A stretch of DNA of 27,331 nucleotides from Candidatus Thorarchaeota archaeon. GTDB lineage: Archaea > Asgardarchaeota > Thorarchaeia > Thorarchaeales > Thorarchaeaceae. Positions 3,087-27,320 of the stretch are shown here, in pieces. The translations under genes were made by a program, and so were the position numbers. Position 1 is the first letter of the stretch, and each line of letters begins with the position of its first letter. The stretch spans positions 1 to 27,331 of the forward strand of contig JBHLRS010000044.1 in NCBI GenBank assembly GCA_048882325.1, in the 5' to 3' direction. The notes below the pieces were generated by a model that saw nothing but the letters and a program-made list of their open reading frames with translations, searched no databases and had not been told where the DNA came from.

Positions 3087-3866
3087 TCAGAGCCATTCTT
3101 GAATGAGACCATCAATTGTACCATCTTGAAGTGCTGCTGAGATTGCGGAATTTATCTCAATGAGCAAGCTATCTGCATTCCTACCGACATAAAGAACAGT
3201 CTGTTCTGCAGCCAGATTTAGGATTGTCTTGATGTTATAGATTGATGCAAATGCAGGTACCACTGGGGCATCAAGGAAAATGGCATCAACAGTTCCTGCA
3301 TCCAATGCAACAAACATCAAATCTGCTGTTGCGAATCGAGTCACAGTGACACCACTGATTGCACTGATTGCCTCATCCTCAATCGATCCGGTCTGCACAC
3401 CTACATTGTAACCATCGAGATCTTCTAGATTAGAGATAGATAGTGCTGAGTCGTTCATAGCAACAACAGACATCTCAGTTCGAAGATAGGGAATGCTGTG
3501 TTGCAGTATCGCTGCTCTAGATTCGCTTATGAACATGGCTGCAGCTATGACATCAATTGTCCCTGCTCTACAAGCTCCAACTAGAGAGGCAAACTCCATA
3601 TTTTGCCACACAAGAGTGACATTCAGAAAGTCAGCAACATATTCCATTAAATCCGCATCGAATCCTACTACATCATTTGTTGCGTTGAGGGATTCAAATG
3701 GTGGATAGTCGGCACTAGTTCCTACGATTAACTGGCCTCGGTTTACAACCCTTTGAAGGGAATTGTCTGCAGGAGTCGGTCCAATGGGAATGAATACCCC
3801 AAGTCCGAATCCTATCACGAGACCAATAACGAGGAATGCGATTGCCATTGTGTTTCTTTCGCTCAA
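3087..3866 (-). CDS. Amino-acid ABC transporter substrate-binding protein (SBP family 3), N-terminally membrane-anchored
   Basis: N-terminal TM helix, GTSADYPPFE, VGVQTGS and GTVDAIFLD motifs. TTG start with upstream GGAGGCG. First gene of a 4-gene operon. Confidence 0.95.
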   Translation of the reverse strand: MSERNTMAIAFLVIGLVIGFGLGVFIPIGPTPADNSLQRVVNRGQLIVGTSADYPPFESLNATNDVVGFDADLMEYVADFLNVTLVWQNMEFASLVGACRAGTIDVIAAAMFISESRAAILQHSIPYLRTEMSVVAMNDSALSISNLEDLDGYNVGVQTGSIEDEAISAISGVTVTRFATADLMFVALDAGTVDAIFLDAPVVPAFASIYNIKTILNLAAEQTVLYVGRNADSLLIEINSAISAALQDGTIDGLIQEWL

Positions 3867-24715: not shown

Positions 24716-25564
24716 TCACCTTCGTCTAAGGAAAATGATTGCTAACACAATGACAGCTGCAACAACACCGCCTCCAATAGCTATCAGCTCCCAAGACAGG
24801 GGTGACGGAGTTGTAGTTGGTGTTGTTGTGGTTGATGTTGTAGGTGTTGGCGTAGGTGTTGGCGTAGGTGTTGGTGTGGGTGTTATTGTATGATTGCATG
24901 GTGTTGGCTCGTCGTCGATAACCAGATTGTCAATTGCAGCACCAGCAGTACTGTAGCAATAGAACTCAAGATAAGTAGAAATTGTGACACCATTGTAGGT
25001 AAAGTGGTCTTCGAAGGTTCCATTGTAGTAGATGTCGAAGTGGCCATTACTTGTCCTGCTTATATCAATGTGGTGCCATCCTTGCATGGGATCCTTATTG
25101 AAACTTGAGTGAACTGGATGATAAAGTCCCTTCATCGACCAGGCGACGAAATACCAAGGACTTGGTGGGTGCCCCCAAGCTCCAAAAGCTATAAACTCAG
25201 AGGGGTAATTTGGGATTGGTCTGGATCCGTTAGACATGATATAGACATAGATAACTCCCAGAATATCTGAAGTGTCTGGAACAAACATATCGAAACTCCA
25301 AGTCCCTACATTCACGGTACTGTTGTGCCAGGCATAGTTGAGATCATCATCAAGTACCTTCAGTGTTCCTTCTGCATCTGAGAAGTTGCCTGGTATCTTG
25401 ACTAATGATGTATCATTTTGGTATGCAAATATTGTCCAATCTCCAAGTCCGCCTTCGAAGTTATCACTCCATACAACTGCTGCATTTGTGGTAGTTGTGC
25501 TTACTGAGATGCAGAGTACAAACATTGTAAATCCTGCAATCAGGCGCATGAATCTTGTTTTCAT
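24716..25564 (-). CDS. Secreted, membrane-anchored beta-sandwich (ConA/LamG-like) protein with Pro-Thr linker
   Basis: Signal peptide; VWSDNFE, GTWSFD, GWHHIDISR...FDIYYNG and IDNLVIDD; (PT)n linker; C-terminal TM + RRR. Start ATG 25564 after GGAGG (track 25591). Confidence 0.82.
   Translation of the reverse strand: MKTRFMRLIAGFTMFVLCISVSTTTTNAAVVWSDNFEGGLGDWTIFAYQNDTSLVKIPGNFSDAEGTLKVLDDDLNYAWHNSTVNVGTWSFDMFVPDTSDILGVIYVYIMSNGSRPIPNYPSEFIAFGAWGHPPSPWYFVAWSMKGLYHPVHSSFNKDPMQGWHHIDISRTSNGHFDIYYNGTFEDHFTYNGVTISTYLEFYCYSTAGAAIDNLVIDDEPTPCNHTITPTPTPTPTPTPTPTTSTTTTPTTTPSPLSWELIAIGGGVVAAVIVLAIIFLRRR
24840..24884. repeat. 12-bp coding tandem repeat (GTAGGTGTTGGC, about 3.7 copies) encoding PTPT
   Basis: Directly visible; encodes TPTPTPTPTPTPTPT. 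Confidence 0.85.
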
Positions 25565-25650
25565 ACAATTTTCCTCCCATCCTTTGTCCACGCGAACAAA
25601 GAACCATTTCTTCTGTTATTCGGTACTCATTAGCTCTGAGGGTTTTCTCA

Positions 25651-26865
25651 TCAGGATTCAAACTCTACGAACAGATCGTGTTCGGTGTTATTTAGGTAGA
25701 TATTGGCTGTTACAGTGTTGGTAAATGATTCATAGAGATAGATGCCAATCTTGTTGCTGTTGCAGGTGTTGCCTGTTAAGAAGTTCATATCTGAGAGATT
25801 GAGGAAGATGCCATAATTGCCATTTCTATTACACTTGTTGTTGAAGACTCGATTTCCACCTGAAGAAAAGAGGTAGATGCCACTTTCGGTGTTTTTGGAG
25901 CAGGTGTTACTCCACACGCGGTTGTCATGTGATCCATCTAGGAAGATGCCACGAATTGTATTGTCGTTGCATGTGTTACTAATAATAGCGTTATAATTCG
26001 ACCAAAAGAGGGAGATGCCAATCGAGTCGTTGGAGCAGTAATTGTTTTCCACTGTGATGTAATTCGAATCATGGAGGCCGATGCCAAAGTCAGCGTTGCT
26101 GATGCAGGTGTTGTTCTCCACGGTGTTGAAATCTGAGTTATAGATAATGATACCAACTGTGTTGTAGTTGCAGATATTGTTTATCTCTGTGTTAGAATCC
26201 GAGGCAGCATAGAGGTAGATACCTTGTTCGTTGCGGTTGCAGGTGTTGCCAGTCACATTGTTACCATCTGAATTTCCAAGGTAGATGCCATAATTGGTGT
26301 TGTTGTTGCAGATGTTGTTTGCAATAGTGTTGGAATATGAGTCATAGAGGGTGATGCCAGAGCCATTGCTATTACAGGTGTTGTTAACTAGCTCGCCGTT
26401 TGTAACATTTATCAGGAAGATTGCGGCTCCATCAATGCAGAAGCAGGGTCCATGACCCCAATAGGCACCAGTGATAATGCAGTTGCTAATGGTGAAGCTG
26501 ACTCGTGTATTGCTGATGTTTATACCATGGCCAACTACACCGCCAAGGTCAATTTTCAAACCGTCAATTATGTATGGATTCTCAGGAGATCCATCACCAA
26601 GCCACCCTTCTAGCAAAGCTATATCAGAGAAACTCGTATCCCCATCAATTATTATGGGAGTATGTCGGGTGAGTTTTTGTGGCTGACCATCTAGTATAAT
26701 TATTGGCGGTGGTCGGATCAAGTAATACGCCAGACCAGTTGTTGTCAACATGAATGTCAGACCAACAGCCATGATTGTTCTAGGTCTCAAATGCCAGTTC
26801 AAACCCGTTTTGGAACGTGGTGGAATAGGGCATATTCTTGAACGGTTTTTTATTTTTGATTCCAC
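25651..26865 (-). CDS. NosD/pectin-lyase-like right-handed parallel beta-helix protein with an N-terminal membrane anchor
   Basis: HTPIIIDGD...GWLGDGSPENPYIIDGL cap, then about 11 Asn-rich repeats (GIYL..S..N.[VI].[GN]N.C..N). Single TM at about residues 31-50, no C-terminal TM. GTG start after GAGGCGA. Confidence 0.92.
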   Translation of the reverse strand: MESKIKNRSRICPIPPRSKTGLNWHLRPRTIMAVGLTFMLTTTGLAYYLIRPPPIIILDGQPQKLTRHTPIIIDGDTSFSDIALLEGWLGDGSPENPYIIDGLKIDLGGVVGHGINISNTRVSFTISNCIITGAYWGHGPCFCIDGAAIFLINVTNGELVNNTCNSNGSGITLYDSYSNTIANNICNNNTNYGIYLGNSDGNNVTGNTCNRNEQGIYLYAASDSNTEINNICNYNTVGIIIYNSDFNTVENNTCISNADFGIGLHDSNYITVENNYCSNDSIGISLFWSNYNAIISNTCNDNTIRGIFLDGSHDNRVWSNTCSKNTESGIYLFSSGGNRVFNNKCNRNGNYGIFLNLSDMNFLTGNTCNSNKIGIYLYESFTNTVTANIYLNNTEHDLFVEFES

Positions 26866-27320
26866 TTCAGTCGCCTCTCAATTATTTCAACAAGATACAC
26901 GCCAAGTTCTGTTGGGGGCTTGTCATCTGGAAGAGGGATCTCCCATTCCTCTGCCAGTGTTCGAAGAGTCTTTAGGCATTGGTCCTGCATATCGCATGTA
27001 CCACAAGCACGCTCATGTTCATACCAAATCTGAAGACCAATCTTTGGAGAATAGAAGATGTATGTATCTGTATCGTAAGCAGCACAATAACCTTTGGCGA
27101 TACCAAATCGTGTGCTGATTCGTTCTATTTTTACCCGATTGACTGATGCAGTATGCTGAAGGAGTCGATAGATTCGTTCCTCAGCTGTCTTCTGTGCCAT
27201 GGTGACAAACGGTCGTGATACCTTCAGATCCTTTGCGATATCTGAGGGTCTCTCTCTCTGGCGACGCCTGAGCCAGATGTGACCTTGCTGTTTAGTTGGG
27301 TATCGAAGATATCTGAACAT
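26850..27320 (-). CDS. HTH (sigma70-region-4/Tfx-like) putative transcriptional regulator with a C-terminal H-x3-C-x2-C-x5-C site
   Basis: PTKQQGHIW...PSDIAKDLKVSRPFV..A...AEERI fits an r4-type HTH; QIWYEHERACGTCDMQDQC is a likely metal site. Overlaps the downstream gene by 16 nt. Confidence 0.8.
   Translation of the reverse strand: MFRYLRYPTKQQGHIWLRRRQRERPSDIAKDLKVSRPFVTMAQKTAEERIYRLLQHTASVNRVKIERISTRFGIAKGYCAAYDTDTYIFYSPKIGLQIWYEHERACGTCDMQDQCLKTLRTLAEEWEIPLPDDKPPTELGVYLVEIIERRLKWNQK

Follow-up and report, generated by a model that had tools for sequence, protein, structure and literature searches.

The end of a 27,331-nucleotide (nt) stretch of DNA from Candidatus Thorarchaeota archaeon (contig JBHLRS010000044.1, positions 1 to 27,331; hereafter, the window) raises the question of whether a putative transcription regulator and the membrane protein encoded directly after it act as one signaling unit. 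The first of the two overlapping genes encodes a small protein with a helix-turn-helix (HTH) and a cysteine-containing domain, and the second encodes a partner in which a short cytoplasmic tail containing one Cys precedes a transmembrane (TM) helix. A sequence-only reading of the window likened this arrangement to bacterial extracytoplasmic function (ECF) sigma/anti-sigma pairs and proposed that the tail binds the regulator, perhaps through its Cys. The two genes are one copy of a widespread archaeal two-gene module, and we put at roughly 62% the probability that the tail tethers the regulator at the membrane, with its Cys at or in the metal site of the regulator.

Pairing of the two genes was scored automatically by accepting a partner that had a Cys-containing tail followed by a TM segment and that started within −120 to +70 nt of the regulator. 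Such a partner was found behind 139 of 150 distinct regulators of Asgard archaea, Bathyarchaeia, and Methanosarcinales with readable downstream DNA, and inspection recovered one in 7 of the 11 exceptions, where it had been missed through the open reading frame (ORF) rule, a frameshift, or masked bases (in locus L041, it was masked by N), for a total of about 146 of 150. Overlaps or gaps of −89 to +7 nt were the rule in homologous loci, and in every group the next same-strand gene overlaps or abuts the regulator stop codon and opens with a short, basic tail with one Cys, followed by a TM segment. When 55 partner N termini were aligned, the Cys was the only invariant tail column besides the start, and it lay within the general motif [hydrophobic]-C-[P/R/L]-x-P, which takes a different form in each lineage (Table 1). 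The part of the partner beyond the TM segment was not conserved and could be a NosD beta-helix, a PQQ propeller, a bPH domain, DUF1673, DUF6159, a small multi-pass protein, or nothing recognizable. The sequence-only reading held that homologues should be followed by genes encoding a Cys-Pro tail and a TM segment with variable outer domains, and this expectation was borne out over a wider range than foreseen. We conclude that the regulator and a Cys-tailed membrane protein are a conserved gene pair.

The partner in the window carries 8 Lys or Arg residues and 1 Glu among the 30 residues of its tail, which contains RICPIPP, and the resulting net charge of +7 was read by the positive-inside rule as an N-in orientation. 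No Pfam family matched the tail at an E value of ≤10. The outer part matched parallel beta-helix models (PF05048, E = 2.3e-45; PF13229, E = 3.6e-30; TIGR03804 repeats, E = 1.5e-42), and the NosD copper-maturation model TIGR04247 gave 69 bits and did not reach its equivalog-level cutoff of 300. Judged from these profiles, the outer domain is a generic parallel beta-helix of the NosD type. No C-terminal hydrophobic segment was seen in the sequence, such that sequence and Pfam searches agreed with the basic 30-residue tail, single TM helix, and unanchored external beta-helix described at the outset.

Conservation of the tail was traced to the protein level. The aligned partner start was GTG in 11 and ATG in 8 related loci, with a GGAGG-like box located 8 to 10 nt upstream in each. 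In three independent groups, the Cys codon alternated between TGC and TGT and the Pro and Gly codons used all synonymous forms while the residues stayed fixed, and therefore selection acts on the tail peptide rather than on a DNA or RNA element. Moreover, the reading frame of the regulator cannot explain the tail motif because the motif lies downstream of the 16-nt overlap. Within the genome of the window, C[PR]x[PT] occurred in the tail of only 8 of the 692 ORFs that had a first TM segment at residues 15 to 60, and the two convincing cases among the 8 were neighbors of regulator paralogues. We conclude that the tail motif is not general to membrane proteins of this genome and is confined to regulator neighbors.

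Two other readings of the tail Cys were tried and rejected. A lipobox was ruled out, as the Cys lies before the hydrophobic segment and not after it. A haem-regulatory CP motif was set aside, as CP is not required: the Pro after the Cys was replaced by Arg, Leu, or Gln in 46 of the 139 partners. We also note that in one relative (L052:2938-4323, Logan assembly SRR28211862), the public call of the partner starts at an internal ATG (position 3142) and drops a 68-codon N terminus that is opened by TTG and holds a WCPHP tail and a TM segment. Start-site clipping of this kind probably hides the tail motif in many annotations.

The regulator could be assigned to no Pfam or NCBIfam family beyond weak HTH matches, all of which were below threshold (Pfam HTH_23, E = 0.032; NCBIfam Tfx, E = 0.027). 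Within an 87-member alignment of the family, subthreshold matches to GerE were found in 27 members and to Sigma70_r4 in 14 to 17. An AlphaFold2 (AF2) model made with that alignment as input had a predicted local distance difference test (pLDDT) value of 92.9, a confident fold, and arranged in order three helices (residues 10 to 20, 25 to 32, and 36 to 60), a four-stranded sheet (63 to 100), a Cys loop (101 to 111), and two further helices (112 to 125 and 136 to 151). The HTH (residues 1 to 60) and the Cys domain (residues 62 to 156) thus take up all 156 residues. Residues 1 to 61 of the model aligned with the HTH domains of sigma region 4 (r4), LuxR, and EnfR at VIA Z values of 5.5 to 7.6, middling values that support a type of HTH, r4/LuxR, and not membership in a family. 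The Cys domain folded alone (pLDDT, 91.1) had a best PDB neighbor at a VIA Z of 3.9 and no Foldseek match at an E value of ≤0.001, which is a missing match and not proof of a new fold. Residues W16, G73, W99, C106, C109, and C115 were invariant across the family. The protein described earlier, a 156-residue HTH/zinc-type product that overlaps the next gene by 16 nt, could be read directly from the ORFs and the H-x3-C-x2-C-x5-C motif, and its sigma70-r4/Tfx-like HTH, below threshold by sequence, was supported as the r4/LuxR type by the AF2 structure.

The three Cys residues of the putative metal site (C106, C109, and C115) were present in 87 of 87 regulators, and H102 was present in 80. The full H-x3-C-x2-C-x5-C spacing was found in the window's regulator and in 75 of the 87 members. 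Zinc anti-sigma factors have the motif H-x3-C-x2-C, His-ligated [4Fe-4S] clusters such as N5 of NuoG and FS4C of [FeFe]-hydrogenase have the full spacing, and WhiB-like (Wbl) proteins have C-x2-C-x5-C. The likeness to Wbl proteins and to N5, FS4C, and PF10588 sites is one of Cys spacing, and the regulator family has no significant sequence or fold match to the WhiB-like or His-ligated [4Fe-4S] proteins. Subthreshold matches, which are hints only, were obtained to PF10588 (NADH-G_4Fe-4S_3) in 25 of 87 members (E ≤ 1; best E, 0.0011; all under the 27-bit cutoff), to PCYCGC in 26, and to RseC in 11. The lineages that carry the family are all anaerobes. By its spacing, the motif would fit a His-ligated [4Fe-4S] site at least as well as a zinc site, and we rate [4Fe-4S] slightly above zinc as the candidate metal. 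Because the 7 regulators that lack H102 keep the three Cys residues and a Cys-tailed partner, they fit a site of three regulator Cys residues and one tail Cys, in which His may be an alternative ligand.

A complex of the regulator and the tail was modeled from the regulator alignment and a tail alignment cut to residues 1 to 32, with 4Fe-4S supplied as a ligand. The ipSAE score was 0.81 (0.64, 0.81, and 0.81 in the three runs), compared with 0.02 for the best of three controls. In calibration, 58 of 80 solved complexes and 2 of 110 mismatched pairs scored this high, a yardstick that is rough here given the custom alignments and the 4Fe-4S ligand. The runs shared at least 81% of their contacts, with a pLDDT of 47 to 53 for the partner. 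The predicted interface placed tail residues 8 to 17 against regulator residues 82 to 87, 97 to 106, 111, 115, 118, and 136 to 144; the tightest pairs joined tail C12 and P13 to W99, Y100, and C115, and P136 also lay within the interface. As modeled, the contacts center on residues that do not vary in either family, and on the regulator side they fall in the C-terminal domain, outside the HTH. We know of no similar complex, and recall of a solved structure by the predictor is therefore unlikely. The contact at the Cys site that the sequence-only reading had envisaged was thus returned by the model. We conclude that the complex model supports binding of the tail to the regulator but does not show it.

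The regulator family was found in three archaeal phyla. The window's regulator had 106 close homologues of about 156 residues and 50 to 99% identity in metagenome-assembled genomes of Thorarchaeota/Promethearchaeota, all annotated as hypothetical, and an exhaustive search of 1.8 billion cluster representatives, made without a profile, returned only 85 clusters at 50% identity. Within Thorarchaeia, 76 of 87 genomes carried the family, in up to 8 copies each. Across the Asgard phylum, its distribution was patchy: it was frequent in three families and was not found in 135 genomes of one other family of the same phylum. A narrower search with a four-member subalignment of regulators identified 74 loci in named genomes, mostly in Bathyarchaeia with several per genome and otherwise in Baldr-, Hod-, Heimdall-, and Hermodarchaeota and one Geoglobus. 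When 401 genomes of the Geoglobus phylum were then sampled, about 55 of them gave a total of about 65 full-length matches, and a protein search gave as their relatives proteins of Methanosarcina (M. mazei, M. flavescens, and others), Methanoperedens, and Methanococcoides, all of which are annotated as hypothetical proteins and have no Pfam domain.

In the Methanosarcinales, the partners included proteins that exceeded the 30.4-bit cutoff of Pfam DUF1673 (PF07895), with E values of 5.8e-54 and 1.5e-35 and scores of 123 to 184 bits. In five Methanosarcina-like genomes, all above-threshold DUF1673 copies (2 to 9) were located in one same-strand array directly behind the single regulator. In genome G615, for example, the regulator at 107424 to 107855 (minus strand) was followed by nine copies from 107376 down to 101891. 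Nine DUF1673 genes lie behind one regulator, and therefore one regulator faces many alternative Cys-tailed membrane proteins. Genome G625 (C1:230707-236071) likewise has nine tandem DUF1673 genes behind one regulator. The statement in the sequence-only reading that similar proteins in other archaea lie beside GWCP-like, DUF1673-type membrane proteins was therefore correct, and whole arrays of these proteins are encoded behind the regulator. DUF1673 is also present in M. acetivorans. The window's partner is not itself a DUF1673 protein: it had no Pfam match to that family at an E value of ≤10, and no protein in its genome scored above the cutoff. What the two share is position, strand, and an N-terminal [hydrophobic]-C-P motif before the first TM segment, whereas their membrane and outer parts are unrelated. 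DUF1673 appears in an earlier survey as arCOG06827, "MGWCP motif, DUF1673," listed as "dark matter" with no partner or function given (Makarova et al. 2014, PMC4158269).

The genome of the window has three further regulator paralogues, located on contigs C56 (66% identity), C3 (50%), and C33 (27%). The C56 copy (C56:16661-17089) is cut by the contig end, and a beta-helix fragment that is 50% identical to residues 67 to 216 of the window's partner opens contig C32 (C32:6-800). The two contigs may join, and a repeat-rich partner gene may have broken the assembly. The C3 copy (C3:38612-41036; L015) overlaps by 47 nt a gene for a 659-residue membrane protein; the tail of this protein reads ..IIRACRIPKK.., its TM segment is at residue 52, and its outer part had no Pfam match. 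The C33 copy (C33:26152-30048; L016) has the spacing H-x6-C-x2-C-x5-C and is followed by four tandem genes for membrane proteins of about 250 residues. The tails of the four share VIKPP..G(R/K)VFKP and lack Cys; the layout recurs here in a Cys-free form.

Only 11 nt of the window lie upstream of the regulator, and the sequence beyond them was taken from contig C83, the first 77 nt of which (C83:1-77) are the last 77 nt of the window's contig, which C83 continues. A 46-nt block at C83:81-126, within the stretch C83:81-145, AGTTAAAG..TTAGGTTAATTCTGTTAAGGTATTCGCATTAACTC, preceded by a TTATTA box, was nearly invariant in 12 orthologous loci, and the DNA farther upstream could not be aligned. The block contains three GTTAA sequences and one inverted TTAAC, and paralogous loci have GTTGAC/GTCAAC instead. 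With a TATA-like box on one side and the start codon on the other, the block is well placed for a candidate autoregulatory operator, which we treat as a lead and not as a result. On the same strand, upstream of the regulator, C83:287-1609 (minus strand) encodes a 440-residue, multi-pass membrane protein that is transporter-like in appearance.

Downstream of the partner, a third co-directional gene encodes a surface protein with a weak match to the GGIII-like C-terminal region (NF041738, E = 0.027). In 3 of 5 close orthologous loci, the gene behind the partner is homologous to this third gene, also when the partner has a different outer domain, and other secreted proteins occupy the same position in paralogous loci. 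The gene had initially been called LamG-like, a description that could not be confirmed: no Pfam LamG match was found at an E value of ≤1. The third gene is likely a member of the operon and could be among the targets of the regulator.

Table 1. Features of the regulator/partner locus in the window and forms of the tail motif by lineage
Feature	Positions	Strand	Basis or remark
Regulator gene, 156 aa, ATG start; N-terminal r4/LuxR/Tfx-type HTH and C-terminal alpha+beta metal domain	26850..27320	minus	ORF list
HTH region, residues 10-60 (helices 10-20 and 25-32, long "stem" helix 36-60)	27141..27293	minus	Predicted secondary structure
Metal motif H102-x3-C106-x2-C109-x5-C115 (within W99-Y-E-H102...)	26976..27017	minus	Read from sequence
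Shine-Dalgarno-like box of partner, GAGAGG	26874-26879	minus	Sequence
Overlap of regulator end and partner start, 16 nt	26850..26865	minus	ORF list
Partner gene, 404 aa, GTG start	25651..26865	minus	ORF list
Partner cytoplasmic tail, residues 1-30; motif I11-C12-P13-I14-P15-P16 at 26818-26835	26776..26865	minus	Sequence and model interface
Single TM helix, I31-I50, predicted N-in	26716..26775	minus	Hydropathy scan and positive-inside rule
Extracytoplasmic part: Pro-rich linker and parallel beta-helix (about 25678-26508), no C-terminal anchor	25651..26715	minus	Pfam/NCBIfam
Third co-directional gene: surface protein with signal peptide, (TP)n Thr/Pro stalk, and C-terminal TM+RRR	24716..25591	minus	59 nt after partner stop
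Tail motif, Thorarchaeia			RICP[IV]PP, ACPIPP, or ACR[IL]P
Tail motif, Heimdall-like			PVCLKQP or FICLEPP
Tail motif, Bathyarchaeia			F[RK]xWCPQPP, DYCPQP, or DWCRIPPEPP
Tail motif, Methanosarcinales			IRKLMGWCPN

In the reading that we favor, the tail would hold the regulator at the membrane until it is released. The first gene encodes a small transcription regulator with an r4/Tfx-type HTH and a Cys domain, and the second gene is translationally coupled to the first. The tail motif would dock on the C-terminal domain of the regulator beside the Cys cluster, and the docked regulator would be held at the membrane as an anti-sigma factor holds a sigma factor. The tail Cys would most likely complete or join the metal site, three Cys residues coming from the regulator and one from the tail, with either zinc or [4Fe-4S] as the metal. 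The regulator could then be set free if the outer domain changed, if the partner were lost, or if the metal were oxidized or lost, and once free it could act on its own promoter and on downstream surface-protein genes. Membrane sequestration, the identity of the metal, the signal, the sign of regulation, and release of the regulator upon a signal are the parts of this scheme that we infer. In its most novel form, the tether would be an intermolecular metal center shared between three regulator Cys residues and the tail Cys, of most interest as a [4Fe-4S] cluster, from which oxidation, iron loss, or a change in the partner would release the factor; we advance this form tentatively and consider it less likely than not.

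A number of observations weigh against tethering by the tail Cys. By its sequence, the regulator has four potential ligands of its own (H, C, C, and C), and the tail Cys would not be needed to complete the site. The contact between tail and regulator comes from the complex model, which is one structure-prediction job, and in that model the fold of the partner itself is uncertain (pLDDT, 47 to 53). A mutual-information test for covariation of the tail with the regulator mostly picked up common descent, and the interface did not stand out in it. In the distant C33 subfamily, all three Cys residues are retained, yet the G(R/K)VFKP tails of its partners are Cys free, and many partners elsewhere (DUF1673 proteins and proteins of 160 residues) have little or no outer domain with which to sense. 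Finally, a regulon extending past the promoter of the regulator itself could not be traced: a genome scan with the 46-nt block gave only two near matches, both inside coding regions.

Explanations that dispense with tethering were weighed against the same evidence. The regulator might simply autoregulate an operon for surface or membrane proteins without contacting its partner, and the Cys tail might serve in targeting, in lipid or thiol modification, or as a protease site. Such an operon would account for co-directional genes that are often followed by a further secreted protein, for a near-invariant block upstream of the regulator as expected of an autoregulated promoter, and for a regulator that supplies four ligands itself. 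Operon membership alone, however, leaves unexplained why unrelated proteins across three phyla carry an invariant cytoplasmic Cys, and the motif was found only beside regulators in the window's genome and only in the array behind the regulator in Methanosarcina-like genomes. Moreover, the complex model was confident, against control scores of 0.02, and its contacts center on residues that are invariant in the two proteins. We therefore regard a plain operon without contact as unlikely. The observations on the tail argue more strongly against a start at the internal Met32, which would make the partner a conventional secreted beta-helix protein headed by a signal peptide and the "tail" an untranslated leader. 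Gene callers do choose an internal start in some relatives, such as L052, in which an ATG lies 68 codons after the TTG, but the ATG or GTG start and its Shine-Dalgarno box are conserved at the same aligned position in 19 loci, the motif codons vary synonymously around fixed residues, and, were translation to begin at Met32, the hydrophobic stretch would have no charged n-region in front of it. An untranslated tail is very improbable.

The pairing and interface evidence would also suit a partner that acts as a positive factor, like a coactivator in the manner of ToxR/ToxS, the tail recruiting a regulator that is active or stabilized at the membrane. In the predicted complex, the tail contacts the C-terminal domain and would leave the HTH (residues 10 to 60) free, such that DNA binding by a tethered regulator seems possible. 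Arrays of up to nine tethers per regulator fit competition or sequestration somewhat better, and nothing directly opposes a membrane-active regulator, which we give a low probability. Tethering of the regulator by the Cys tail remains the reading that we favor.

The closest parallel in layout is the ECF sigma/anti-sigma pair, particularly pairs with zinc anti-sigma (ZAS) factors such as RsrA, RslA, ChrR, and RsiW, in which an r4-type HTH gene precedes and overlaps a single-pass membrane gene with a short cytoplasmic N terminus and a variable outer domain. The two kinds of pair also have in common an H-x3-C-x2-C metal motif where the proteins meet, and the structural neighbors of the window's HTH were largely sigma region 4 domains solved with anti-sigma factors (3hug, 5wuq, 4cxf, and 4nqw; Z, 5.5 to 6.4). 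To our knowledge, however, archaea have no sigma factors, the window's regulator has no sigma region 2, and no region 2 family was among the 25 families listed for the 87 members. The metal motif resides in the membrane protein of ZAS pairs but in the DNA-binding protein here, and where those pairs have an anti-sigma domain (ASD or ZAS) of about 90 helical residues, the partner here has a tail of 15 to 50 residues that contains a motif of roughly 10. The predicted contact, moreover, is made with the C-terminal domain and not with the HTH. Thus, of the ECF layout proposed in the sequence-only reading, the adjacent, overlapping genes and the variable outer domains held (about 146 of 150), and neither a region 2 nor an anti-sigma domain was found.

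Other known systems resemble parts of the pair. Short tails that hold a soluble protein through a metal are exemplified by the CD4/CD8-Lck "zinc clasp," in which a cytoplasmic C-x-C-P tail holds a signaling protein by one zinc shared between chains. The clasp and the Rad50 zinc hook share with the pair the principle of the tether; they are eukaryotic, unrelated in sequence, and built from 2+2 Cys residues, whereas the split proposed here is 3+1. The Tfx/EnfR family (MTH0916, PDB 1nr3; TON_1525, PDB 8hno) shows the same order of elements as the regulator within about 150 residues, an r4-like HTH at the N terminus followed by a long stem helix and then an alpha+beta head; for EnfR, the arrangement of flag, stem, and head is described as an "eighth note" fold (PMC10570040). 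EnfR was the best sequence and Foldseek match of the regulator (profile E, 2.4e-4; 8hnp at a probability of 0.96, TM-score of 0.34, and root mean square deviation of 10 Å), with a VIA Z of 6.4 over 52 HTH residues only. The Tfx model TIGR00721 aligned with one member over positions 8 to 97 (E = 8.8e-5) but did not reach its cutoff of 60.25 bits, giving 14.4 bits for the window's regulator and 22.4 for the best member tested. The text of the EnfR paper has no mention of cysteine (PMC10570040), and no membrane partner is described for Tfx or EnfR. We conclude that the regulator can be no more than a very remote relative of Tfx/EnfR, and one with an extra Cys domain.

Among archaeal transcription factors, ArnR and ArnR1 of Sulfolobus also operate from the membrane, as membrane-bound regulators that have an HTH and a TM segment in one chain (PMC6396743). 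Unlike the window's pair, each is a one-component protein, and neither a separate tether nor a Cys motif is present. In the literature searched, no description of the regulator/Cys-tail pair was found.

The module looks like an archaeal counterpart of sigma/anti-sigma signaling that is undescribed in the literature searched. In our reading, it functions in the manner of an ECF sigma/anti-sigma pair without belonging to that class: sequestration of a transcription regulator at the membrane by a partner would here be achieved with novel components and in another domain of life. How archaea signal across the membrane to transcription is poorly understood, and partner-controlled membrane sequestration is undescribed in archaea in the same literature. 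The module is small and defined, it is multicopy (up to 8 per Thorarchaeal genome, with up to 9 tethers in Methanosarcina), and it occurs in three archaeal phyla, including Asgard archaea, the relatives of eukaryotes. It links two families known as hypothetical, DUF1673 and a regulator family with no Pfam model, and frequent clipping of the Cys tail by gene callers is a systematic annotation error. The predicted contact is specific enough for single Cys mutants, and the presence of the module in Methanosarcina makes the idea testable beyond uncultured Asgard archaea. If the tether is an intermolecular metal center as outlined above, DUF1673 would receive its first function, and Asgard archaea, Bathyarchaeia, and methanogens would have in common a redox- and envelope-sensing switch that operates without a sigma factor.

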